41,506 bases of DNA from a virus: positions 1-41,506 of IMG/VR virus record IMGVR_UViG_3300029866_000016, one strand, 5' to 3'. Below the pieces are notes generated by a model. That model worked only from the letters and a program-made list of their open reading frames with translations, ran no database searches and was not told the DNA's origin. The position numbers were made by a program, and so were the translations under genes. Of this stretch, positions 5,293 to 33,934 are shown one piece after another. The first letter of the stretch is position 1, and the number at the start of each line of letters is the position of its first letter.

Positions 5293-6508
5293 TTATGAAA
5301 ATCCGTGTGCTGTCGAATGTTGCGATCTGATCGAAATTAATAGGTACGGTAGCCATATTAATAGTTAGGCTCGACAATCCTAACTGTATACTGTTAACAA
5401 TGTGGCCCGGTACGCTGTTGACTGGAGTATACAATCTTGATGCACTCACTGATTCGCCTGGTAAAAATCCTATTTGTTGAAATCCTATGTCGATCCCTAA
5501 TCCTGCTGCGCCATCCTGGGCATAGCTTAATATTGCGTCGATCATGCGACTGACACCATCGGTACCAAATTGACGCAAGTCATTGACTGTCGTATTGATT
5601 GCTACAAATAATTCAACCGGTGACGGTCTAATCCATCTTATCTCGTTGTTGATGCCTCGCCGGTCTGTGATAGTCATGGAGGTGTTGCCAAAATATCCTA
5701 CACCGGTTGCTGTGCGTAAAAATAAAGTTTCAGCAATCACTTGATCGTTACCGCCTTGCAGCACCGCAGCGATAGACTTACCTGGTAATCCGCGAGCATC
5801 TGTGATTAATGTGTCATTGACGAGCAGCCGAACAAATTCAGTGCCTGGAATATTAGAGAGTGCACTAAAAATGGCCTCACTTGTGCTTTGACTTGGGGCT
5901 TCGGTGGTTCGCGCCCGACGTGCCCGCAATGCTGAATCAGATTCTTCAAGCGCGCCAGGGTTTGCGTCCAACAAATTAACGACACTAGACCACCCATTAA
6001 TAGGGGTGAGAATATTAGTTAGGGTGCCGGCTTGAGCAGGGACAGCACCGGTTATTTCTGATAGTGCGGTTACTGTGCCAGCGCCCGAGCCATCGAGTGT
6101 AATGTCTGCTGTAGTCACAAATGTCACAATTTGTACAGGGTCTGACACCCTTTGCCCTAACTGAATTATAGTGCCGGGGGTGCCGGTCAATTGTAATTCA
6201 ACAGTCGACACTGTGGCTTCACGACGTGTGATCCCATTGACTTGCACACTTGCTGATTGCACCACACCTGTCGCCGCATCAGGATCTAAAAAACGTACTA
6301 CATTTTCTAGTTGCATCCACGCTTCAGCATTTGCCTCGATTGTCGCATCGAGTATTTGCACAAGCGGGTCGTTTTCGTCAAAATCAACATTTAGTGATTC
6401 CCCGGTGTCAGGGTCAGTGATTAGTGACAGTCGAGCATATAAACTGGCACGAATGTCAGCGAGTCGTTTGAGTCTAAAGCCCTCCGGCATTAATCCAAAA
6501 TCACCCAT
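5282..6508 (-). CDS. Baseplate J-like protein
   Basis: 408-423 aa protein between the W-like and DUF2612-like genes. The N-terminus MGDFGLMPEGFRLKRLADI is typical of J-like proteins, so I place the start at 6508. The ORF-track start at 6553 adds 15 aa and has no RBS. Confidence 0.7.
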   Translation of the reverse strand: MGDFGLMPEGFRLKRLADIRASLYARLSLITDPDTGESLNVDFDENDPLVQILDATIEANAEAWMQLENVVRFLDPDAATGVVQSASVQVNGITRREATVSTVELQLTGTPGTIIQLGQRVSDPVQIVTFVTTADITLDGSGAGTVTALSEITGAVPAQAGTLTNILTPINGWSSVVNLLDANPGALEESDSALRARRARTTEAPSQSTSEAIFSALSNIPGTEFVRLLVNDTLITDARGLPGKSIAAVLQGGNDQVIAETLFLRTATGVGYFGNTSMTITDRRGINNEIRWIRPSPVELFVAINTTVNDLRQFGTDGVSRMIDAILSYAQDGAAGLGIDIGFQQIGFLPGESVSASRLYTPVNSVPGHIVNSIQLGLSSLTINMATVPINFDQIATFDSTRIFINVS

Positions 6509-6560
6509 ACCACGAATCACACCTTTATATAGACAATTATCACAGTATAGCATTAAATAA

Positions 6561-6595
6561 GTATCAGACTTTACATTTATTATATAGTCTGATAC
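6561..6595. promoter_or_regulatory. Perfect 10-bp inverted repeat upstream of the plus-strand Cro-like cassette (operator or bidirectional element candidate)
   Basis: gtatcagact (6561-6570) and agtctgatac (6586-6595) are separated by an AT-rich 15-nt spacer, in the 74-nt gap between divergent genes. Confidence 0.45.
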
Positions 6596-6627
6596 TGTAT
6601 GATCGACTTAAGAGAGAGGATGACGGT

Positions 6628-6804
6628 ATGAGAGTGGGGACATTAAGAGAGTACATTGTCAAACATCACGAGGGGGTGCAAGCTAAATTTGCTAGAGCAA
6701 ATGATGTTGACCCACCACAGGTGACGCAATGGATTAACGGTCAGTTTTTAGTGATTGATCATGTGATGTATAGCAAGCGCCGGGAATTGATAAAACCGAA
6801 ATGA
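6628..6804 (+). CDS. Cro-like HTH protein (58 aa)
   Basis: Not in the ORF track. MRVGTLREYIVKHHEGVQAKFARANDVDPPQVTQWINGQFLVIDHVMYSKRRELIKPK aligns by eye with the lambda Cro layout (TLKDY...A...V.QS.I...I..G..I.L.I....Y....KP). RBS is gagagg. Its stop overlaps the next ATG (ATGA). Confidence 0.55.
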   Translation: MRVGTLREYIVKHHEGVQAKFARANDVDPPQVTQWINGQFLVIDHVMYSKRRELIKPK

Positions 6805-7043
6805 ACATAATCATAGAGTATATTTGGTATCGTGGATTTTATGATAATGATAACGTTTTAGGTGAGACGAGGTTGACTAGTCTTGTCAGGTCTAGGATTG
6901 GGGTCAAATCGGCAATTGAGAAATGGGTGAAGGAGTGGTTGAGCGTGGGTTATATCGAAATTATCACTATCAACACCATTTACGCAGACGACGAGATATA
7001 TTGCGAGATTGATTCAAAACGATTTGACGCTAAAATGGTATAA
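6801..7043 (+). CDS. Hypothetical protein (80 aa), second gene of the antisense cassette
   Basis: ORF coupled to the Cro-like gene by an ATGA overlap. It is AT-rich, and its 3' end overlaps the convergent baseplate W-like gene by 14 nt. Confidence 0.45.
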   Translation: MNIIIEYIWYRGFYDNDNVLGETRLTSLVRSRIGVKSAIEKWVKEWLSVGYIEIITINTIYADDEIYCEIDSKRFDAKMV

Positions 7044-8168: not shown

Positions 8169-9061
8169 TATACAACATCCAGTATTTTAAATGCTCGGGT
8201 GCTCATAACCCAGTCGTGATTATATGTAGCGCCTGAAAATTCAATGCTGAAAACTTTATACACACCGTCGAGCATTGGGTTACTAATACTTGTTACTCGC
8301 ATTTGGTCACCTGGTCGCACCTCGGGATTTAATATTGAGTCAATAGTCACCCCGTTATTATGTTGCATTGCGCCGGCTAATGTAGGTGTAATATTGATTA
8401 GGTTTCGATTTTCCGCATTAATTTCAAAAACTCGGTCAAAAGCGCGGTTGTCCGATATCGCCTGAAATCGTCCGTCTTGAATCGACCAGGTGAAGCCATA
8501 TTGGTTTGCTAAATTGTCCAACTCATTACTTGATCTATCTGATACAGTCAACCCACCACTTGACAATATTCCGTCGATATCAATTCGTCCTAATTCTACA
8601 CCCGGCATATCGCCAACAATAGAACGCACGAGTGTGGAAACACTTTGCCCACCTAAAAATGTTCGGTTAGTAACTCCTTTTGTAATGCCGCCGAATCCAC
8701 CTAATACATTTAGTTTGGTGACATACTCAGCACCATCTTTGGTGGTTCTCGCATTTAGCACACCGCCCTGCATTAGCAAACTTAACCCAGTGTTAGCCCA
8801 CCCTACACGTATTCGTACGCGTGATAAGGTGGCTCGAATACGTTCGCGACTTTCGGCACGCATGTTATAGATAATAATTTCCGCTGCATTAGCTGAGGAC
8901 TGTAAATATCTTTTAACATTAAACTCAATTGCTAAATCATCGCGACCCCCGTCACTAAAAATACGCAAAGCCTCTGAACTATTCCCACCGCCGACGTCAT
9001 CCGCCAGTGGTCCAATGAGTAGCTCAATATTGCGTATAAATGGATTATTAGGTGGCTGCAT
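8168..9061 (-). CDS. Baseplate hub-like protein
   Basis: Lies directly upstream of the spike gene. The likely start MQPPNNPF at 9061 overlaps the upstream stop. The ORF-track N-terminal extension to 9139 is probably not translated. Confidence 0.45.
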   Translation of the reverse strand: MQPPNNPFIRNIELLIGPLADDVGGGNSSEALRIFSDGGRDDLAIEFNVKRYLQSSANAAEIIIYNMRAESRERIRATLSRVRIRVGWANTGLSLLMQGGVLNARTTKDGAEYVTKLNVLGGFGGITKGVTNRTFLGGQSVSTLVRSIVGDMPGVELGRIDIDGILSSGGLTVSDRSSNELDNLANQYGFTWSIQDGRFQAISDNRAFDRVFEINAENRNLINITPTLAGAMQHNNGVTIDSILNPEVRPGDQMRVTSISNPMLDGVYKVFSIEFSGATYNHDWVMSTRAFKILDVV

Positions 9062-9557
9062 TAAGGTTAATGGTGTAAACCAATCCCTGATCCGTGCGTG
9101 ATGGTGGAAATATAAACTGTAAATCCTCACCACTAACACTAGTTAGTGGGTCATCGTCAATCACGTCGGATAATGACCCACTAACTGCATTAAGTATACT
9201 GGTTGGGATTGCACTTATTGTCACACTTACAGCCACCAAATTTGATGACTGTATGAGGTCTAGCACTCGGCACGACGCACTGAAAATACCCGGCGGATAG
9301 GTGTGACTAATGACTGGGGTGGCTGACTGTATTTCGCCCGATCCGTCACCAGGTAACACTGCGTATGTAAGGGTATCATTTTCAGGGTCTGTTGACGCTG
9401 ATAGATCAAATGTGACGGCTATGTCATTACGCGAAGCCTCGACATTTGAAGCGACTACACACGTCGGGGCTAAATTAATTACGTCACCGACTTGGAAAAA
9501 CAACCCATCAGCAAATAGCTCGTCAGCAAATAGCCCGTCAGCAAATAAGTTTATCAT
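9048..9557 (-). CDS. PKD-like domain protein with N-terminal LFADG repeats
   Basis: FDLSASTDPENDTLTYAVLPGDGSG...HTYPPGIFSASCRVLD matches the PKD pattern (FD.S.S.D....L.Y....GDG.....H.Y..G). Start overlaps the upstream stop (TAATG). There are three 15-nt repeats at 9505-9549. Confidence 0.6.
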   Translation of the reverse strand: MINLFADGLFADELFADGLFFQVGDVINLAPTCVVASNVEASRNDIAVTFDLSASTDPENDTLTYAVLPGDGSGEIQSATPVISHTYPPGIFSASCRVLDLIQSSNLVAVSVTISAIPTSILNAVSGSLSDVIDDDPLTSVSGEDLQFIFPPSRTDQGLVYTINLNAAT

Positions 9558-11485
9558 TACGGAGCAGTACGGATCGGGTTAGTAATGCCATCACCACTAA
9601 CTACATTATCATTAAACGCTTTAGGGTTACTGTCAATAATCCCTGGCAGCGTGAATGTTAATTGATCCGTCTGATCCCGGATAGCTGCAATTGCTGCTGG
9701 ATCAAAACTGGTATTATCGATTGCATATCGAGATGTATCGACAACTGTGACAGCCCCGCCGGAATTATCTTCCAGATCAAAAAATCCAGCAATCGTAATG
9801 GTACCGCCGACACAATTTGCATTAATTGTAATTAGTCTACCAGCCCCGTCGATGCTGACATTATCGCCCACTTTGAGATTGAGAATTTCCACTGATCCAG
9901 CATATCGGCGCATATTTAAACTTTTAATACCTACTCCGGTGAAATCTATAAAAGGATGTGTCAGCCCCGCATCAGTCGAGCGTGTATCAATATAGTCATA
10001 AGTCCCCGCATCAGTCAGGGTGATTGTCCCGCCGATACCACAATCTACTAACGAGTGTAGGCCAAGCGAGTGGTCGGTAAGTCTGCACCCCTCGTAGCAT
10101 GTCAATATAGAGTTATCACCCAGGTCATTGCCTGTAATTTGTGCACCATGTATGAGTGAGCCCGCTACATTTCGCCCGCCCAAATCCACAGCATAATCGT
10201 GACCAAAAAATTCAAACCCAGCATAGGCTTGATCAAGCGTAAAAACCGACCCCGGTAGTGCATGCAGCAGTGTACTATTCAAGCCGTCCATGATTGTGCG
10301 TGCTGATGCCAGCACACTAACTGGGTTATCAAAAGTGCCATCATTATATAACACTGTCCCTGTATTATTTCGGTTAGTGTCGATCCAAACTTGACCGCCT
10401 ACATATCCAATAATCTGCTGTGACGCCACGCCCTCAGCGAGTAATTCATCAACGGTTAAGGTCGCGCCGGTCAAACCAGACCCGTCAATGCGCAAGAACA
10501 CTAACCCAATATCAGCACCGGTTCCGGTGTGTCGAGATAACAGGTTTAGCACACGCACGACATTAGCAGCACCGGTCTGGCCCACTAACTCACCGTATGC
10601 GTCCCAGGTTGTACCGTTCCAAACCGAGAAATTCAAGATATCATTATTGCCGGTTAAATGCCCTGTAAAAGTTATCGACCTTGCAGTTCGTGAGCCACCA
10701 ATTGAAATTTGGTAAACCACATCAATAGCACCACCAACATCATTAACAATGTGGTCATTTCCTCCAATAAAATGGGTATCCACAAATGTGTTGGTCTGAG
10801 TGCCGATAAAACTAACACCATTTAGTGCCCCGCCGGTATTGTCCGCGTTGACTTCAAAATTGAGTCCACCACCAGAACCCCCTACTGATGAAACATTATC
10901 GGCGCTGGCTAATGCAACTCTCACACTATTCCCTGCGGTAACGACAAAAGGGGCTGGGTCACTATCTAGTGTTATTTGCCCTGAGCTAGCAACATACGAT
11001 GCTAAACTCACCGTCGCAATGTCCTCAGCAACTGACGCATCACCTATAATCACATCGCTACCGGTGGGGTAGGACGCGTCAAACGAACTGCCATTAGTGA
11101 GTGTAAAAACAGTAGGACTTATTACCGTCAAGACTGTGGTGTCAATCAGTACTGCACCCTCGGTAGTATTTGCAGCGATCAATTCAAACTCACCTGCGAT
11201 CCCAATGGGGTTGAGTGCGGAAATAGTTACCGAGCAATATGCAGTATAGTCACCAACCGTATAGCCTGCCGACGTAGGTATAGTCACTTCATACGCGCCG
11301 TTTGGATACGCCGCATTAGTTAGTAAAAACGGGGTTAAGATTGCTATAGGTGCATTAGATGCTGTATCGCCTTTTCGCCGAACATGAACCAACGGTGACG
11401 CACCATCTCCTTGACTACCTACGTCTGTGTTTGATGCAAACGCTAAGCGAACCGTGGCACCCAATTCTCTGATTTTATCTGTCAT
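9557..11485 (-). CDS. Large tail fiber / tailspike-like protein (642 aa)
   Basis: Long Gly/Thr/Asn-rich protein in the tail module. The C-terminal half has beta-helix-like periodic segments (GAQITGNDLGDNSILTCYEGCRLTD...). Confidence 0.55.
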   Translation of the reverse strand: MTDKIRELGATVRLAFASNTDVGSQGDGASPLVHVRRKGDTASNAPIAILTPFLLTNAAYPNGAYEVTIPTSAGYTVGDYTAYCSVTISALNPIGIAGEFELIAANTTEGAVLIDTTVLTVISPTVFTLTNGSSFDASYPTGSDVIIGDASVAEDIATVSLASYVASSGQITLDSDPAPFVVTAGNSVRVALASADNVSSVGGSGGGLNFEVNADNTGGALNGVSFIGTQTNTFVDTHFIGGNDHIVNDVGGAIDVVYQISIGGSRTARSITFTGHLTGNNDILNFSVWNGTTWDAYGELVGQTGAANVVRVLNLLSRHTGTGADIGLVFLRIDGSGLTGATLTVDELLAEGVASQQIIGYVGGQVWIDTNRNNTGTVLYNDGTFDNPVSVLASARTIMDGLNSTLLHALPGSVFTLDQAYAGFEFFGHDYAVDLGGRNVAGSLIHGAQITGNDLGDNSILTCYEGCRLTDHSLGLHSLVDCGIGGTITLTDAGTYDYIDTRSTDAGLTHPFIDFTGVGIKSLNMRRYAGSVEILNLKVGDNVSIDGAGRLITINANCVGGTITIAGFFDLEDNSGGAVTVVDTSRYAIDNTSFDPAAIAAIRDQTDQLTFTLPGIIDSNPKAFNDNVVSGDGITNPIRTAP

Positions 11486-12630
11486 AATGTCTGACCTTTA
11501 AATAAATTATGCCCTAGTATATTATCTTTAAATAGAGGTGTCGAACGCGTGGTCACGGGAGGCATCGTGTCGAAAAACTCGAACCCGCCAATCGTACCTA
11601 TCGCTTGGCGGGTTGTGCCCACAATATCCACAGTTAAATCAACGCGTGGGTCAATTTGAGCCGGGACTAATACGCCATTTTGTGTAACAGTAAATGCGTT
11701 TTCCCCAGCGATTGAAAAATCCTGATTAACGAAATCCACAACAAATACATTGGACCCCGAACTAGGTGAGATGATCACCCCCGCCACATTGGGAATCCCA
11801 CCAATGCCAAATTTACTCAATGCCGAGGCATCACCGCTGATGTTACCAGCGCCCGTAAAATTGACTATCCCCGGTGATGATACAGGGCTTGATATACGCC
11901 AATCCAATTCGGATGGGTCAACCGCCCCTGTCGCAAGTTGCGTTGATCGAGTGTCTTGATTAATAACTATATTATTGTAAGCGTCGATTATTGCAGTAGA
12001 CATCCCGGTCAACGACACTGCAATACTACCGTTTAATGTCTCTGTTGGGAATCGACCGCAATCAATAATTGTATTGTGATAAAGATTGTAACGATAAACA
12101 TTGCCGACCCCGGAGAATCTTTGAATGTGTATTGCGGCGCGGGCAAAACCTGTTATTACGCAGTTAGCAATGGTGGCAGATTGCGATGTTGCTCCACCAA
12201 AATAAAACCCATCTTGACCACTTTGATTATTTGCGGCACGGATAAAACATGCTTGTGCAAGAAAGTTACCGGAGTTGAGCCTGAACGCCTCGTCTGACCC
12301 ACCAGCTAATGTATCAAGTGTTATAGCTATACCTTGGTACCAAACAAATCCACCATTAATCGTATCCGCGTGACCCCCTGCGTTACCGAGAATATGTGCA
12401 CCCGACCCTCCACCAAAATCTGTTGCGTGATTGCCCGGTGTGTGGGTTATCTTTATGTGGTTAGCAAAAGATTCTCCTGCCCTCGCCGGCACAACGATGT
12501 CGCCAACATAAGTCCCGGGCTCTAACTGTATTTCGTAGACCTCGGTCAGCGTTGCAGGAGCAGCGTCAATAGCGGCTTGCAAGTCGGTAAAGTCCGCACC
12601 CCCTGCCTGATTAACAACAACGATTGTCAT
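11482..12630 (-). CDS. Right-handed beta-helix protein (pectate-lyase-fold, depolymerase-like)
   Basis: Repeated segments NCVITGFARAAIHIQ, YHNTIIDC and AYNNIVINQ. The start MTIVVV at 12630 overlaps the upstream stop (TAATG). Confidence 0.6.
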   Translation of the reverse strand: MTIVVVNQAGGADFTDLQAAIDAAPATLTEVYEIQLEPGTYVGDIVVPARAGESFANHIKITHTPGNHATDFGGGSGAHILGNAGGHADTINGGFVWYQGIAITLDTLAGGSDEAFRLNSGNFLAQACFIRAANNQSGQDGFYFGGATSQSATIANCVITGFARAAIHIQRFSGVGNVYRYNLYHNTIIDCGRFPTETLNGSIAVSLTGMSTAIIDAYNNIVINQDTRSTQLATGAVDPSELDWRISSPVSSPGIVNFTGAGNISGDASALSKFGIGGIPNVAGVIISPSSGSNVFVVDFVNQDFSIAGENAFTVTQNGVLVPAQIDPRVDLTVDIVGTTRQAIGTIGGFEFFDTMPPVTTRSTPLFKDNILGHNLFKGQTL

Positions 12631-13382
12631 TATGAGATGCCCATAACTTCTATGGTTACCCACCTAACTGGAGTTAGTTCAAACCAGTCTAAATTGATTG
12701 CTCCGTTGTCTATGTCCAGTCGCAGTGTGTAGCGCCCGGCAGGCAAGAAAATCAGCCCCGCATCTTCGATTGCCCACACATCCCATGCACCGGTTGATGG
12801 TATGATTCCGGATGACACATAAACCTGAACACCGTCAACACTAAAACTCAAGTTAACAGGCGCGTTGGGTTGCTCAACCCGCGCATAGCGCGCAGTTACT
12901 TGATACAGTGCGGTGTCATTGACAACAACCTCATATTCTAGCCACTCACCTGCTTGCGTCCAGCCGACGTTAAAGCCACCTGTGTCGCCAGTTAGATTTT
13001 GGATATCTACGCCAAAATCATCGCGATACAGCCCTCCTCGGTTACTTTCCGGTGTTGAATCATTAGCTGTGGTATAGTCTTCAAATTCAATTCTGCCTGG
13101 CACTAACTGTAAGTAGAGTGGCGCCATTTCGGACTCCACACATATGACATGGCCGCTAATACCATCGGCATTTGTGTATTCGTGATAGCGAAACCTACCA
13201 TTGAGTCCAGTCGCATGACTGAAATCCCCACACTCATCGCCGACTATGGCGCGTGCTATTGCCCTGCCACTAATAACCGAGATTAGTGGCCTTGTTTCAA
13301 AAGATCGGTTCGGTGCAACCACTGTATTAGATAATGCGAGGGTAGAGAATAAAAGTAGAAACACTGTGCATATAATTTTCAT
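12630..13382 (-). CDS. Secreted CBM6-like carbohydrate-binding protein
   Basis: Sec-type signal MKIICTVFLLLFSTLALS|NT. The C-terminal ~130 aa RIEFEDY...GWTQAGEWLEYEVVV...YQVTARYA...PSTGAWDVW...LPAGRYTLRL...INLDWFEL match the CBM6/35 pattern. Confidence 0.65.
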   Translation of the reverse strand: MKIICTVFLLLFSTLALSNTVVAPNRSFETRPLISVISGRAIARAIVGDECGDFSHATGLNGRFRYHEYTNADGISGHVICVESEMAPLYLQLVPGRIEFEDYTTANDSTPESNRGGLYRDDFGVDIQNLTGDTGGFNVGWTQAGEWLEYEVVVNDTALYQVTARYARVEQPNAPVNLSFSVDGVQVYVSSGIIPSTGAWDVWAIEDAGLIFLPAGRYTLRLDIDNGAINLDWFELTPVRWVTIEVMGIS

Positions 13383-13990
13383 GGTGTCATCCTGTGTGTT
13401 ACTGCGTGGTACTTAATCTTAACGCGCTCCATTGCACCATCTCTCACCATGCGACTGATTACCTGCCCTACACTTTCTCGACAACTACCTATCGCTTTTG
13501 CCAGTGCAGTTATGTTTATTTTAAACCCAGTGTCTGCCGATATGGCATCTAGTTTGCCGCAGACCCATTTGACATTTTCATAGCAGCTGTATACGGTTAG
13601 TCTCGATGCAAACGTCATCTGATCTGAGATAAATGTAGCATACTGAGCGTCATCAGCCTTGCATCGCAACAGCTTTGATTTGAGAATCGCATGGATATAA
13701 AATCCCTCGGGAACGAATATAACATCCCCTGCTACAACCACGCACGCACTGCCATTAGTATCATGCGAAATCGCCGAAACCGCGCCTTTTTGGACAAAGT
13801 AAGTCCCAGTTAATAAACTGTGCCTGTTTTTTTGGATTGTTATCTCATTCACAGCACCCTCAATAATCTGAGTGTCAGGTAGCACCCTAGCTCTGATTTT
13901 ACTCAAAGCACCAATCTTTCGGGTGCATGTTTGGAGCTGTGCTATCGCATCGTCGCACATTCGCTCAATTTCGCTATAGTCTAGTTTCAT
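13379..13990 (-). CDS. Crp/Fnr-family-like transcription regulator
   Basis: Beta-barrel-like core (YFVQKGAVSAISHDTNGSACVVVAGDVIFVPEGFY) plus a C-terminal HTH ITALAKAIGSCRESVGQVISRMVRDGAMERV (Crp-type G.sREsV.r.l..l...G). ATGA overlaps at both ends. Confidence 0.6.
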   Translation of the reverse strand: MKLDYSEIERMCDDAIAQLQTCTRKIGALSKIRARVLPDTQIIEGAVNEITIQKNRHSLLTGTYFVQKGAVSAISHDTNGSACVVVAGDVIFVPEGFYIHAILKSKLLRCKADDAQYATFISDQMTFASRLTVYSCYENVKWVCGKLDAISADTGFKINITALAKAIGSCRESVGQVISRMVRDGAMERVKIKYHAVTHRMTP

Positions 13991-14568
13991 AATAAAAATG
14001 GATCGGCGATTATTTCGCTAATCGAGCTGTCACCCACTACCTCAACTCCAATAATATCAGTCGCTAGTATACCAAAAAGAGGGCGGGATAGAACTATAGA
14101 TTGATCTGCAGTCGACTGTGTAAATGTCTGAGTGTTTAGTATGACACCACCTTGGGTTATGTTTATTATGTTGACTGTAAATGTCGGGGTCGGTGGTGCG
14201 ATAGCACCAATGTCATCGATTGTCACATTTAACTCAGGTATGGTATCGCTTGCCACAACCTCGGAATCTAAAAACTGCACAACGTCAGCAACGTTGCCCA
14301 ATGTATCAACGCCTCGATTTTCCGCCGTCATTCTGATCTGCTGAAATAATTGAGTAAGGTGTGGATACGCGCTAACTATATTTATGCGATCTAACAGGCT
14401 TAAGCCGACAACAAGTACTTGACCATTGCTGTCAAGAATATCAACCAACCATTTATTTAATGCACTGTTGAATGACGTACGGAATTGGTACTCGCCGATA
14501 CCCTCGATAAAATCAACAGTAACTAATCGTGCGCCGTCGTCGGTTAGTGGTATGACTTGCAGAGTCAT
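13987..14568 (-). CDS. Hypothetical tail/baseplate-module protein (193 aa)
   Basis: ORF in the tail operon between the post-TMP gene and the Crp-like gene. I recognise no motif. Confidence 0.4.
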   Translation of the reverse strand: MTLQVIPLTDDGARLVTVDFIEGIGEYQFRTSFNSALNKWLVDILDSNGQVLVVGLSLLDRINIVSAYPHLTQLFQQIRMTAENRGVDTLGNVADVVQFLDSEVVASDTIPELNVTIDDIGAIAPPTPTFTVNIINITQGGVILNTQTFTQSTADQSIVLSRPLFGILATDIIGVEVVGDSSISEIIADPFLL

Positions 14569-29262: not shown

Positions 29263-29791
29263 TGATGATACTCTCCGCAAACTGCTCTGCTACTAATAGT
29301 GGGTTGTCAAGCACGGGCGGTGTAATATGTTTAATCTCACTCACCTCTTTAAAGGCTTGTACATCGATGTGTTTGCCGATTAACTCCAGCACTTTCACCC
29401 GATCATGTATTTTTGGTGTCACCGTTAGTTGGCCTTGTATCTCCTTGATTTCATACCCCGTAATCATTCGCTGCTGGGCATATGTCAAGTCCTGGACGGG
29501 TTTAGGGTTGCCCTGGTCATCAAATAATTGACGTATGTCGCCGAGGCCAACCATCATCAGCTCACGTAGCACTGTCGCTGCGGTGATGTGTAACTCGTCA
29601 GCGACTGCATCCATGAGTGTTTGCACATAGACGCGCAGTAACTCATCACTATTAAAGTGTGACTTGCACGACCGTGCAACACTCTCACTATATCCGCACA
29701 TTTGGCCCGCTCGATACGCATTGTTACAGGCTACATAAAACTGTGCCCACAACCGGCGACGAGGGCTTATTGTTAAAAATATCTTGTTCAT
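29246..29791 (-). CDS. terS: Terminase small subunit
   Basis: LTISPRRRLWAQFYVACNNAYRAGQMCGYSESVA matches the Terminase_2 pattern (LT.kq..F..eY....Na..AA..AGYS). Confidence 0.75.
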   Translation of the reverse strand: MNKIFLTISPRRRLWAQFYVACNNAYRAGQMCGYSESVARSCKSHFNSDELLRVYVQTLMDAVADELHITAATVLRELMMVGLGDIRQLFDDQGNPKPVQDLTYAQQRMITGYEIKEIQGQLTVTPKIHDRVKVLELIGKHIDVQAFKEVSEIKHITPPVLDNPLLVAEQFAESIINAETS

Positions 29792-29796
29792 ACACC

Positions 29797-29805
29797 ATTA
29801 TATCA
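29797..29805 (-). promoter_or_regulatory. Perfect extended -10 (TGaTATAAT) immediately upstream of terS
   Basis: The minus strand reads TGATATAAT-ggtgt-ATG. Only 5 nt separate the hexamer from the terS ATG. Confidence 0.35.
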
Positions 29806-29863
29806 CGTCATTTATTTGATGGTTTTGACCTCAAACGCATCAAATATTGGTGTATATCACACA

Positions 29864-30020
29864 CTCTCAAAATTTAGGGGATACTCTCAAATTTTGAGAG
29901 AACGCCGCCAACTTTTTGACGCATCAATTGGCTCTCAAATTCTTGATCTAATACTAGTTAAATTTTGAGAGCTAATTTTAAATTTTGAGAGCTAATTTTA
30001 AATTTTGAGAGCTAAAATTT
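29864..30020. repeat. Iteron family A: CTCTCAAAW, 3 direct and 4 inverted copies, including a 17-bp palindrome and a 3x 20-bp tandem repeat
   Basis: Forward copies at 29864, 29884 and 29932. Reverse copies (ttttgagag) at about 29892, 29964, 29984 and 30004. Tandem aaattttgagagctaatttt x3 at 29961-30020. Confidence 0.8.
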
Positions 30021-30124
30021 AGACTTTTAGGGCTTCTATCTAATACTAGTTAGGGGGTTAGTTAGGACTTACTCCAAAGATTGGAACAGACCCTAAACCG
30101 TCTAAATCTAATATTAGTTAGGGG
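29946..30124 (+). repeat. Three dispersed copies of ATCTAATAYTAGTTA(GGGG)
   Basis: Copies at 29946-29960, 30038-30057 and 30106-30124. Each contains an AATACT/AATATT -10-like hexamer. Copy 2 has TTAGAC 17 nt upstream. Confidence 0.7.
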
Positions 30125-30159
30125 AAAAGTGCTACATTTTTGACCACTTTTTTTGAGAA

Positions 30160-30268
30160 CCCAGTATCTATGCGGGCTACAGTCGCACCGACTTGTCCCG
30201 ACTATTCCGACTATTTTGGGGGTGATTTTAGGGTAGTTGGTGCGCCTGTAGCCCGCATAGATACTGGG
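30160..30268. repeat. Perfect 22-bp inverted repeat with 65-nt spacer (long hairpin/cruciform)
   Basis: cccagtatctatgcgggctaca (30160-30181) pairs with tgtagcccgcatagatactggg (30247-30268). Pairing extends imperfectly inward (gcaccgact/agttggtgc). Confidence 0.85.
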
Positions 30269-30498
30269 CTCCACAAGTTGATAATTCCGACTACCCCGAC
30301 TTTTTGGAACATCTCAGAATTCTAGAGTTTCTGTATATGTGTGGATGTGTGTATATGCGGTATTGTATCTATTTAGTAGTCTATAATCACTCAGGCATAC
30401 TACTATTATACTCATTATTAATATCTTTATAAAGTCGGGGTAAGTAGGGGTAAGTAGAGAAAAACCCAGCAAATATATGGGCTACAGTCGCACCGACT
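30188..30498. repeat. Iteron family B: YCCGACT, 6 forward and at least 1 reverse copy, flanking an AT-rich segment, plus a 20-bp direct repeat
   Basis: ccgact at 30188, 30198, 30207, 30287, 30296 and 30493. agtcgg at 30433. gggctacagtcgcaccgact at 30174-30193 and 30479-30498. AT-rich tract at 30330-30430. Confidence 0.75.
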
Positions 30499-30575
30499 AG
30501 TTGGGATTTCATCGGAATCGGTCGGGACTGGTGAAATTATGATAAACTGTGGACACAAACAGAGAGGCGAACATT

Positions 30576-32863: not shown

Positions 32864-32938
32864 TAACGGATGACTCACAACTAACTAAATTTGATTGATA
32901 AACGGCTCGCGAAGAGTTTTACACAAAAGAGGCAGAAA

Positions 32939-33934
32939 ATGAAATTTGATATCTTAAATCGGGTCGGTAATGAAGTGAAATTTACGGCAGACATAGACTG
33001 TAGTGAATCATTGTTAGAGGCGCAGAAATTGGGTTTAGCGGTGAAGTGGGCGGTGAGGTGGGTGATTAGAAGTCGTACCGAACTGCGTGGTGCCGATCTG
33101 AGAGGCGTCGACCTGAATAATGTCGACCTGAGTGGGGCCGACCTGAGTGGTGCCGATCTGAGAGGCGTCGACCTGAGCGGGGTCGACCTGCATGATTCCG
33201 ACCTGCATGATTCCGACCTGCATGATTCCGACCTGCATGATTCCGACCTGCGTGGGGCCGACCTGAGCGATTCCGACCTGAGCGGGGCCAACCTGAGCGG
33301 GGCCAACCTGCACGGGGCCAACCTGCGCGGGGCCGACCTGCGCGGGGCCGATCTGCGCGGGGCCGACCTGAGCGGGGCCAACCTGCGTGGGGCCGACCTG
33401 AGTGATTCCGACCTGAGCGGGGCCAACCTGAGCGATTCCAACCTGCGCGGGGCCAACCTGAGCGGGGCCAACCTGAGCGGGGCCAACCTGCGCGATTCCG
33501 ACCTGCGCGGGGTCGACCTGCGCGGGGCCAACCTGAGCGGGGCCAACCTGCGCGATTCCGACCTGCGCGGGGTCGACCTGCGCGGGGCCAACCTGAGCGG
33601 GGCCAACCTGGATAATTCCGACTGGGTACCAAAAATCGAAAACATCCACGCCACCGTATATGCCGCTGCGAAGGAGGGAGATGCTCTTGACATGGATCAA
33701 TGGCATACATGCGAGACCACCCATTGTCGGGCGGGATGGGTGGTCACTCTTGCCGGGGCGGCGGGGAAGGTTATGGAGGGTGTTTACGGGACGAGTGCGG
33801 CGGCAGCATTAATCTATATGTCTAGTGATCCGGCTATGAAAAAGATACCAAATTGGTTAGCGTTGGATGAAGATGCTCTGCAAGATATGCAAGAAATGGC
33901 AGAAGCGGAACAACTAACTAAAGAGGCAACATGA
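32939..33934 (+). CDS. Pentapeptide-repeat protein (35 consecutive repeats) with Cys/His C-terminal domain
   Basis: Start MKFDILNRV follows aaagagg. Repeats are [RSH][GD][ASV][DN]L x35, then ...WHTCETTHCRAGW.... The ORF-track 5' extension to 32891 starts at a TTG. Confidence 0.85.
   Translation: MKFDILNRVGNEVKFTADIDCSESLLEAQKLGLAVKWAVRWVIRSRTELRGADLRGVDLNNVDLSGADLSGADLRGVDLSGVDLHDSDLHDSDLHDSDLHDSDLRGADLSDSDLSGANLSGANLHGANLRGADLRGADLRGADLSGANLRGADLSDSDLSGANLSDSNLRGANLSGANLSGANLRDSDLRGVDLRGANLSGANLRDSDLRGVDLRGANLSGANLDNSDWVPKIENIHATVYAAAKEGDALDMDQWHTCETTHCRAGWVVTLAGAAGKVMEGVYGTSAAAALIYMSSDPAMKKIPNWLALDEDALQDMQEMAEAEQLTKEAT
33086..33610 (+). repeat. 15-nt periodic coding tandem array (pentapeptide repeats) with perfect internal duplications
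   Basis: catgattccgacctg x4, perfect (33191-33250). 33481-33540 is identical to 33541-33600 (60 nt). Confidence 0.9.

Follow-up and report, generated by a model that had tools for sequence, protein, structure and literature searches.

Regulators of the Crp/Fnr superfamily are among the best-understood bacterial switches, yet they are almost absent from phages. Here we describe such a protein encoded in the IMG/VR virus record IMGVR_UViG_3300029866_000016, the whole stretch of which (41,506 nucleotides) was analysed and is referred to below as the window. Its gene (13379..13990, minus strand) encodes a 22.4-kDa protein of 203 amino acids (aa) and is followed directly by the gene for a predicted exported lectin; we call the two products the regulator and the lectin. 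The regulator has the same domain order and the same approximate size (~200 aa) as known Crp/Fnr regulators, including CRP/CAP, Vfr, CLP, FNR, NtcA, CooA and DdrI (PDB 3dv8, 2oz6, 3iwz, 1cgp).

The closest described systems in terms of gene position lie outside this superfamily. The immI region of P22 (mnt, arc, ant) is a dispensable mosaic module which places regulators in the late/structural region just upstream of the tailspike gene; these regulators are ribbon-helix-helix repressors with their own promoters and known operators, and they control an antirepressor. T5 Llp, phi80/N15 Cor and lambda Lom are exported, dispensable proteins encoded beside host-recognition genes or in tail regions, and are lipoproteins or outer-membrane proteins which act on protein receptors, with their own promoters and no dedicated regulator. 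In the literature which we searched, no Crp-fold protein was described in a phage structural module and no exported phage lectin with a carbohydrate-binding module (CBM) was described, in line with the initial annotation of this DNA, whose author knew of no described role for a Crp-like factor in such a context.

The regulator gene and its predicted fold

The regulator was assigned from its open reading frame (ORF), an AlphaFold2 model, Foldseek, sequence profiles and the ratio of non-synonymous to synonymous substitution rates (dN/dS). The initial annotation had reported an ATG-initiated ORF of 203 aa at 13379-13990 on the minus strand, deep in a late operon and with an ATGA overlap at each end, and all of this was found again, including the translation which it had quoted. 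Both overlaps can be read directly from the minus strand: at 13987..13990 the regulator ATG shares its ATGA with the TGA of the upstream 193-aa gene (13990-13987, read as 'ttattATGAaac'), and at 13379..13382 the regulator TGA shares ATGA with the start of the downstream 250-aa gene (13382-13379, read as 'caccATGAaaa'). It should be noted that, by ORF coordinates, nearly all junctions in the late operon of the window overlap by 1-11 nt or abut, so these overlaps are the norm of the operon and not specific to the regulator. No Shine-Dalgarno-like sequence was present 5-12 nt from the regulator ATG, which would fit coupling of the regulator by reinitiation without proving it.

A HMMER search of 1.84 billion cluster representatives returned six genuine clusters of homologs (P0001 and P0004-P0008) and two spurious matches. 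A word-index search added P0002 and P0003, giving the eight lineages which were analysed, and all members of the family were found on phage-type contigs. Homologs of the regulator exist at 86% and 52% identity. Since the regulator is conserved in 8 lineages and has a dN/dS of 0.13 (measured on the 86% homolog at a dS of 0.58, which is not saturated), it is more than a chance ORF, and these comparisons indicate a real gene under purifying selection. Over the first 10 regulator codons, 4 of the 5 nucleotide differences between the window and the 52% allele (contig L001) are synonymous, a bias which supports the ATG at 13990 and not the Met11 start used for P0001.

The initial annotation had proposed a Crp/Fnr layout for the regulator, and this was borne out by the AlphaFold2 model, Foldseek, the family profile and hhalign: the structure and profile searches found the Crp fold and did not find alternative folds. 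The AlphaFold2 model, built from 8 diverse sequences, has a pLDDT of 79 and a pTM of 0.67; with 4 close sequences only, the pLDDT was 40 and the model was unusable. The predicted structure comprises an N-terminal helix (aa 5-30), a disordered linker (aa 31-46), a beta domain which we read as a shortened beta-barrel sensor domain (aa 49-110; 13661..13846, minus strand), a long helix (aa 114-133) and a winged helix-turn-helix (HTH) domain (aa 157-201; 13388..13522, minus strand), the last of which is placed by a match to HTH_Crp_2 at aa 157-191 and by family alignments. When this model was compared to PDB by Foldseek, all of the top 50 matches were full-length Crp/Fnr regulators (E 1.9e-8 to 1.5e-6), with 177-210 aligned columns and a TM-score of about 0.5. 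Against BFVD there was a single strong viral match, a protein annotated as Crp (A0A6J5RKH2, E 5.6e-8).

Sequence profiles led to the same superfamily. The first 21 places in a search of PDB sequences with the 8-member regulator profile were taken by Crp-family proteins (Vfr, CLP, CAP; E 2.6e-4 to 9e-4), with PDB matches that were always colinear over the C-terminal HTH. The hhalign alignment to E. coli CRP had a probability of 85.6% and an E value of 5.6e-6 over 126 columns, spanning CRP residues 38 to 199 and including the barrel (residues 38-100). HTH_Crp_2 was matched independently by 6 of the 8 family members and Crp (PF00325) by 2 of the 8, while PF00027 (cNMP_binding) was matched by none of the 8. 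The window regulator itself is sub-threshold in Pfam (HTH_Crp_2 17.7 bits against a cutoff of 27; Crp 12.5 against 21), reaches 14 bits against the NCBIfam CRP equivalogs, whose cutoffs are 266-274, and had no match in a single-sequence scan of PHROGs. As it fails the curated thresholds and lacks the cassettes of the cAMP and FNR subfamilies, we filed it as a divergent branch: on the predicted structure, the regulator is a minimal, divergent member of the Crp/Fnr structural superfamily, from a phage-restricted branch, and is not CRP, Vfr or FNR.

The initial annotation had also remarked on the absence of the cassette which binds cyclic nucleoside monophosphates (cNMPs), and the hhalign alignment to CRP upholds this. 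CRP G71 corresponds to F92 of the regulator, E72 (with L73-L75) falls inside a 4-residue deletion, R82 corresponds to I99 and S83 to H100, and T127/S128 fall in an alignment gap. The best reading of these replacements is that the regulator is independent of cNMPs. Assignment to the cAMP-binding CRP/Vfr subfamily was ruled out on the same grounds, the phosphate-binding cassette and the helix contacts being deleted or replaced. The residues which contact DNA have been kept to a much greater extent. The recognition helix (aa 171-184) carries R171-E172...Q176 aligned to CRP R180-E181...R185; R171 is invariant in the family, E172 is kept by most members, and at position 176 six of the 8 members have R or K, the window protein has Q and P0003 has G. 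The C-terminal domain is basic (pI 9.8, compared to 8.95 for the whole protein). From the kept contact residues and the basic HTH we infer that the regulator dimerises and binds DNA. It may also sense a ligand which is not a nucleotide, because 10 of the 11 family-invariant residues fall in the barrel (among them G62, V66, G69, V71, P94 and F97) and at the start of the long helix.

The window regulator has 7 cysteines (12, 22, 83, 110, 136, 144 and 170). All but C170 are invariant in four close sequences only, none is invariant across the 8 members, and P0005 and P0006 do not have the N-terminal segment at all. The FNR subfamily was ruled out, as its Fe-S cysteine cluster (three N-terminal cysteines and a fourth) is not conserved and FNR sites are not enriched in the window.

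Outside this family, close relatives were scarce. Neither DNA search nor tblastn found homologs of the regulator, the lectin, the upstream plug gene or the downstream beta-helix gene (the last two are described below) in 50,697 deposited phage records. Relatives of Crp were present in only 21 of these 50,697 records and most of these were host DNA; one gut 'Bacteriophage sp.' contig with a Crp match (H8/L041) is unverified, unannotated and high in GC, with ORFs in all frames. A search with the beta-helix alignment against one genome for each of 185,579 prokaryotic species returned only unrelated matches to its N-terminal motif, and a scan of metagenome contigs gave just two weak partial matches.

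Gene context, exchange and loss of the regulator and lectin genes

The initial annotation had called the gene downstream of the regulator a secreted lectin. This gene (12630..13382, minus strand) encodes 250 aa with matches to CBM_35_2 (9e-15) and CBM_6 (4.5e-14) in Pfam, and together with an N-terminal segment which, judged by eye, resembles a signal peptide, these matches uphold that description. The CBM lies at aa 119-237 and its matches among PDB sequences are CBM6 modules, down to 1.7e-20. In the 8-lineage alignment, every lectin begins with a short basic stretch, a core of 12-16 hydrophobic residues and then a small-x-small motif; a conserved mature N-terminus (N-x-S-F-E/D-T-R-P-L) comes next, and two cysteines are conserved in 8 of 8. 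The lectin is thus predicted to be Sec-exported and periplasmic. Outside the CBM there is a conserved N-terminal domain of ~90 residues, which contains the two conserved cysteines and has no family match. The extreme C-terminus is also conserved (...ITI-V-M-A/G-I-S) and overlaps the start region of the next gene.

This next gene (the third gene; 11482..12630, minus strand) starts with the ATG at 12630, which overlaps the stop codon of the lectin gene as TAATG, and encodes a protein of ~380 aa (MTIVVVNQAGGADF...). Its product is 48-83% identical across lineages (blastp) and has no Pfam match. A weak profile match to the beta-helix of pectin methylesterase (E 0.089), which includes the typical N-terminal motif and a conserved QD, is no more than suggestive of a pectin-lyase-fold beta-helix, and we regard the product as a putative receptor-binding or depolymerase protein. 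Its residues 1-47 are 68-96% identical across myovirus, siphovirus and lambdoid backbones, the remainder being about 50-60% identical. Such conservation would be unusual for an N-terminus which anchors a protein to the virion, and the patch is plausibly a site of crossover.

In all 8 lineages the regulator is followed directly, with overlap or abutment, by a CBM6/35 gene of ~250 aa and then by the third gene, whose product begins MTIVVVNQAGGADFTDLQAAIDAAP. What lies upstream is far more varied. In the window and in the related L001 the regulator follows a Dit-like gene and the baseplate plug of an E217/Pam3-like myovirus. The window plug gene (Pam3 gp18-like, 193 aa; 13987..14568, minus strand) matches PF22479 with 28.4 bits, above the Pfam cutoff of 24.2, and is preceded by the Dit-like gene and a 518-aa gene of tape-measure size, so that the initial annotation was right to call the upstream neighbour a tail gene. 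The genes upstream of the regulator are DUF1064-type early genes and a 56-aa ORF in L007-L009, and a 685-aa ORF of tape-measure size and a 251-aa gene in L024/L030, which represent a temperate siphovirus. In L022, the upstream gene encodes a 993-aa glycosyltransferase/methyltransferase protein and lies between capsid and connector genes. The location inside a tail/baseplate operon, which the initial annotation had emphasised, therefore holds for the window phage and is not a conserved feature, as the regulator occurs in at least four contexts. By this comparison of gene order, the tail is an incidental setting, and the lectin gene and the putative beta-helix gene are the invariant neighbours.

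Two of these contexts carry features of their own. The 993-aa protein of L022 (6614-9595), encoded between capsid-region genes and the unit, is a fusion of a GT4 glycosyltransferase, a SAM methyltransferase and a GT2 glycosyltransferase, and may act in the modification of virion or host glycans. The siphovirus lineage is temperate, with an integrase, an excisionase and an AcrVA2-like gene (L030 17378-21983; L031 20474-21983), and in L031 it is integrated beside the host genes for a low-molecular-weight (LMW) phosphatase and RNase E.

A further arrangement is shared by three distant phages, L010, L014 and L021, in which the regulator is directly preceded by a sigma-70-type promoter, a leader of ~70 nt with a conserved box, and a strong intrinsic terminator. 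These elements lie at L010 1586-1745, L014 470-693 and L021 9650-9820, with the promoter TTGACA-17-GAkTAT and the box TTCWGSCAACKTG(GTAT). In L010 and L021 they are found downstream of a DNA methyltransferase gene, a RusA-type resolvase gene and a small ORF, which in L010 has a weak match to Q-like antiterminators. The region looks like the PR'-qut-tR' late control of lambda, and a nin-Q-PR'-tR' layout would mean that the regulator and lectin open the late operon in these phages. Rfam had no match in these promoter-leader-terminator regions or in the window, and the leader box is not present in the window.

The unit formed by the regulator and lectin genes contains no promoter of its own, and homology between the window and L007 begins 26 nt upstream of the regulator ATG. 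Where neighbours could be identified, the regulator always sits in a late transcription unit. As the unit lacks a promoter, it should be expressed late, with the transcription unit which surrounds it. Several simpler identities for the unit were considered and rejected. It is not an autonomous moron with its own promoter and terminator, as both ends in the window are ATGA overlaps and the promoter of L010, L014 and L021 is of the lambdoid late type; nor is it a moron expressed in lysogeny, as it lacks a promoter and no integrase or repressor was present among the window ORFs scanned. A lysis cassette, considered for the lambdoid contexts, was dismissed because the GH108 endolysin of the window is encoded elsewhere and the lectin has no catalytic domain. 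A component of the virion tail or baseplate was rejected on the strength of the four contexts, the absence of the regulator from sister phages with the same baseplate genes, and the absence of a match to a PHROG structural family.

The sister contigs also provide direct evidence of exchange. Over window positions 3394-23990 (20.6 kb), contig L002 is about 100% identical to the window outside a single block (that is, over the other ~16.7 kb). Sliding identity places this 3.9-kb block at ~10390..14250 (200-nt resolution), and within it the identity of L002 is 100% to L001 and just 51-79% to the window. L002 is a natural recombinant of window-type and L001-type phages. The exchanged DNA runs from the 3' half of the plug gene through the regulator, lectin and third genes into the 5' part (~1.1 kb) of the gene for a 642-aa protein. 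The regulator and lectin genes form the most diverged segment of the 20-kb comparison, with 51-64% nucleotide identity against about 78%. The window regulator and lectin are closest to those of L007 (86% and 78%), whereas its third gene is closest to that of L001 (77%); between L021 and L022 the third gene is 83% identical and the regulator just 41%. Such incongruent identity matrices indicate that recombination shuffles the regulator-lectin pair against third-gene alleles. Co-divergence of regulator and lectin was weak (Spearman 0.32, p 0.10) and we do not claim co-evolution.

Loss of the pair was also seen. Contigs L028, L029 and L037 differ little from L001 in their backbones (identities of 99% for Dit, 95% for the plug and 98% for the 642-aa protein) and retain the plug gene, the third gene and the rest of the baseplate genes, but in place of the regulator and lectin they carry a 17-codon remnant ORF, MKLDYSEAVSGGWGYQK (L028 8103-8156, L029 9174-9227, L037 7951-8004). 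This consists of regulator codons 1-7 (MKLDYSE) and ten others, and it keeps the ATGA overlaps with both the plug gene and the third gene, which suggests that the chain of translational coupling is itself under selection. Phages with and without the pair coexist in the same two samples. The joint absence in sister phages makes the regulator and lectin an accessory unit which is gained and lost together, and on these genome comparisons the unit is dispensable and mobile. The third gene and the genes after it would by the same comparisons belong to the tail module in the L001-type backbone.

Two further genes separate the third gene from the baseplate hub. The 642-aa protein (9557..11485, minus strand) has no assigned fold and was found only in the window, L001, L007 and L028 lineages, and the 169-aa protein encoded by the last gene before the hub (9048..9557, minus strand) has a PKD domain (Pfam PKD_4, 5e-7).

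Proposed role and rival explanations

We propose that the regulator is a minimal, cNMP-independent, DNA-binding protein of the Crp fold which, with the lectin, has a dispensable accessory function related to the host surface, and we judge the case for this proposal to be evenly balanced. The regulator would be made late, through read-through and translational reinitiation, would dimerise via its long helix and would bind DNA via the R171-E172...Q/R/K176 recognition helix, possibly gated by a non-cNMP ligand in the conserved pocket of barrel and helix (lined by G62, V66, G69, V71, P94, F97, I121, D123, Q124 and F127). The regulator and the periplasmic lectin would jointly act on a host surface glycan, in a function which the phage can do without and which is linked to the adjacent receptor-binding gene. 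In the version which we favour, the receptor would be lowered or masked, either for superinfection exclusion or so that progeny are kept from adsorbing to debris. Functions which lower or mask receptors tend to be dispensable, to evolve fast, to vary within populations and to be linked to receptor-binding genes (T5 Llp, phi80 Cor). We count the strong divergence of the regulator and lectin in favour of the proposal, since this is expected of genes which interact with the host. The target genes, the ligand and any joint action with the lectin are putative, and export, DNA binding and late expression are predictions from sequence. A bolder formulation, which we hold to be doubtful, is that the pair is a portable phage device of a kind not described before, in which a cytoplasmic, ligand-gated Crp-fold switch is coupled to a periplasmic glycan-binding protein; such a device, of a late superinfection-exclusion or receptor-management type, would travel with receptor-binding genes and be gained or lost within a single phage population.

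Several points weigh against the proposal. A regulator which is made late has little time to alter the cell surface in a lytic cycle, and its joint role with the lectin is based on gene linkage only. The structure was predicted from only 8 sequences, with TM-scores of about 0.5, and since the beta domain is ~20 residues shorter than that of CRP and the sequence profile alone stops short of it, a sensor function is unproven. The signal peptide of the lectin was judged by eye and the match behind the beta-helix assignment of the third gene is weak (E 0.089). The search of the window for operators was also unfavourable: canonical Crp sites (TGTGA-N6-TCACA) occurred at chance (26 vs 22.7), as did FNR sites (TTGAT-N4-ATCAA; 4 vs 2.2), and an unbiased scan for palindromes (5-mer arms, spacers of 0-10) gave nothing above simulation. 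CTAAY-N4-GTTAG did have 6 matches against 0.13 expected, although this pattern was chosen after seeing the sequence. One of these palindromes, CTAAC-TGGA-GTTAG, lies at 12664..12677, 34 nt upstream of the third-gene start, and another, CCACTAAC-N4-GTTAGTGG, lies at 9130..9149 inside the PKD gene and is an unproven candidate for an operator or hairpin. Both are in coding sequence. The copy at 12664 has no counterpart in L001 or L007 and probably arose by chance, while the 8-nt arms of the copy at 9130 are kept in L001 with a changed spacer.

Four rival explanations were weighed, and we rank them in the order in which they are given here. An unlikely one, but the foremost of the four, is that the regulator acts locally in cis, binding within the cassette to tune the beta-helix, 642-aa and baseplate genes through an internal promoter or a roadblock, and thereby setting the dose or timing of the host-recognition protein. 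The regulator and lectin are always found just upstream of the beta-helix gene, and the palindromes stand immediately before that gene and near the 3' end of the cassette, with the arms of the latter retained in L001. However, the palindrome pattern was defined post hoc and was not significant in the unbiased scan, one of its two sites is missing in L001 and L007, and phages without the pair keep the beta-helix, 642-aa and hub genes in an ATGA chain, so the regulator is not needed there. The obligatory partnership with the lectin is also left unexplained. It is less probable again that the regulator is a DNA-binding protein which is made with the tail-lumen proteins, packaged in the virion and co-injected with the genome, so as to act when the next infection begins. 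Genes for ejected proteins are often found in the position which the regulator has in the window, shortly behind the tape measure, Dit-like and plug genes; the regulator is also basic and, as its context suggests, expressed late. A packaged protein is difficult to reconcile with four unrelated positions, which include the first place after a lambdoid late promoter and sites beside capsid and glycosyltransferase genes. In addition, the regulator has passed between myoviral and siphoviral backbones, has been deleted from a sister phage in the same samples, and has no similarity to known virion proteins (none in PHROGs).

The strict adjacency of the two genes, their start/stop overlap or abutment and their joint loss would also be expected of a two-protein device for glycan sensing, in which the lectin reports an extracytoplasmic polysaccharide and the Crp-fold protein is the cytoplasmic output, in the manner of sigma-I/RsgI; alternatively, the regulator might not bind DNA and might escort the lectin precursor. 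In Clostridium thermocellum, the combination of a transcription factor with an extracellular CBM sensor is well established. Yet in the lectin just 2-4 residues precede the hydrophobic segment and a signal-peptidase motif is present, which leaves no cytoplasmic domain for contact, and the regulator keeps the DNA-contact residues of the Crp type, so that we think this pairing improbable to a still greater degree than packaging. Lowest in our ranking, and least probable, is a sensor or sponge of nucleotide signals, in which the barrel binds a cNMP, a c-di-NMP or a messenger of the CBASS/Pycsar type and either sequesters it or switches transcription. In favour of this reading, the sensor domain derives from a fold which binds cNMPs, conservation within the family is highest in the barrel and where the helix starts, and CLP, among the best sequence matches, binds c-di-GMP (according to the title of entry 3iwz). 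Against this, the phosphate-binding cassette is gone and PF00027 is matched by no member, PADLOC has no match for the regulator, its homologs or the cassette proteins, and the link to an exported lectin would be unexplained. The initial annotation had suggested a sensor of a nucleotide or defence signal, and the lost cassette, the shortened barrel and the absence of a PADLOC match weaken that suggestion. We therefore retain, of the five, the accessory host-surface function as our preferred explanation.

One other repeat was noted during the search for operators. The 14-mer CTAATAYTAGTTAG (with ≤ 2 mismatches) has 15 sites in the window against 0.55 expected, including those at 6009, 9133, 18129, 29948, 30040, 30108, 35175 and 40849, and 12 of the 15 are on the plus strand regardless of gene orientation. 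Several copies are present at orthologous positions in L001, with the 6009 site identical over 26 nt, and the 14-mer is thus a polar motif spread over the whole genome. It was set aside as an operator because it is strand-biased and is concentrated in a divergent intergenic region, being elsewhere in coding sequence.

The window phage and known systems

The window looks like the complete genome (~41.5 kb) of a virulent myovirus. Its late genes occupy the minus strand between the terminase (about 29.8 kb) and the endolysin (about 2.8 kb), and the plus strand carries the replication genes. A large intergenic region (29791-30549), from which the small terminase gene (minus) and a helicase gene (plus) diverge, is dense in repeats. 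It contains AAATTTTGAGAGCTAATTTT in three tandem copies, CTCTCAAAATTT as inverted arms, ATCTAATAYTAGTTAG three times, and an inverted repeat of 37 nt (30157-30193 / 30235-30271, 92%), of which a third copy lies at 30463-30501. From this layout it is probably the origin and the region which controls the early and late promoters. Among the early/replication genes, 32891-33934 (plus strand) encodes a 347-aa pentapeptide-repeat protein (Pfam E 4e-65). As pentapeptide-repeat proteins can mimic DNA (Qnr/MfpA-like), a role in anti-defence or in topoisomerase protection is possible. Two small genes (about 58-80 aa) lie on the opposite strand between the sheath-initiator and Baseplate_J genes (window ~6553-7030, L001 16963-17399). 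They are not seen among window ORFs of 90 aa or more; both small genes are present in the window-related myovirus contigs L001-L006, and L028/L029 have a single 63-aa gene.

The contigs which carry the family come from few metagenome series, so the family is small and known from few environments. BioSamples SAMN07571231-245 are crustal fluids from the North Pond subseafloor aquifer (PMC6736579). We regard the window phage as a virus of bacteria from the deep subseafloor. In NCBI, a related contig which bears a prophage carries the label Thiotrichales, although the binning of phage contigs is unreliable.

The regulator family is a phage-restricted, stripped-down branch of Crp which is fixed in mid-operon and tied to an exported lectin and a host-recognition gene. 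Nature has already performed the genetics of this system: one genome differs from the window only by the exchanged allele, and a variant which has cleanly lost the pair coexists in the same aquifer samples. If it is true that the pair manages a host receptor glycan, it would represent a new class of exclusion or anti-adsorption function and a phage sensor-regulator for late-stage decisions. If the regulator only tunes the expression of tail fibres, it would still be a rare documented case of a dedicated regulator within a structural operon. The barrel itself, cut down to about 60 residues which keep a conserved pocket but lack the nucleotide cassette, may also be informative on how Crp sensing domains can shrink or be re-tasked.

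Compared to the Crp/Fnr regulators, the recognition helix of the phage proteins likewise starts S/C-R-E, with a basic residue five positions on in most members. Unlike them, the phage regulator has a barrel and helix which are about 34 residues shorter and a cAMP cassette which is deleted or replaced, has an extra N-terminal helix in some members, falls below every curated threshold and is encoded mid-operon without a promoter region of its own. The BFVD protein A0A6J5RKH2, from an uncultured member of the Caudovirales, likewise places a Crp fold on a viral contig; it is annotated as a cAMP-binding Crp, however, and no sequence-level relationship between it and the regulator family was detected. 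The nearest known contextual precedent is immI of P22, which resembles the unit described here in having a regulator directly before a receptor-binding gene region and in being dispensable and mosaic. It differs in that the fold here is of the Crp type, no promoter or operator was found in the unit, and the partner is an exported lectin. This partner resembles Llp, Cor and Lom in turn, as the window lectin is also predicted to be exported, is dispensable and is exchanged together with the host-recognition gene.

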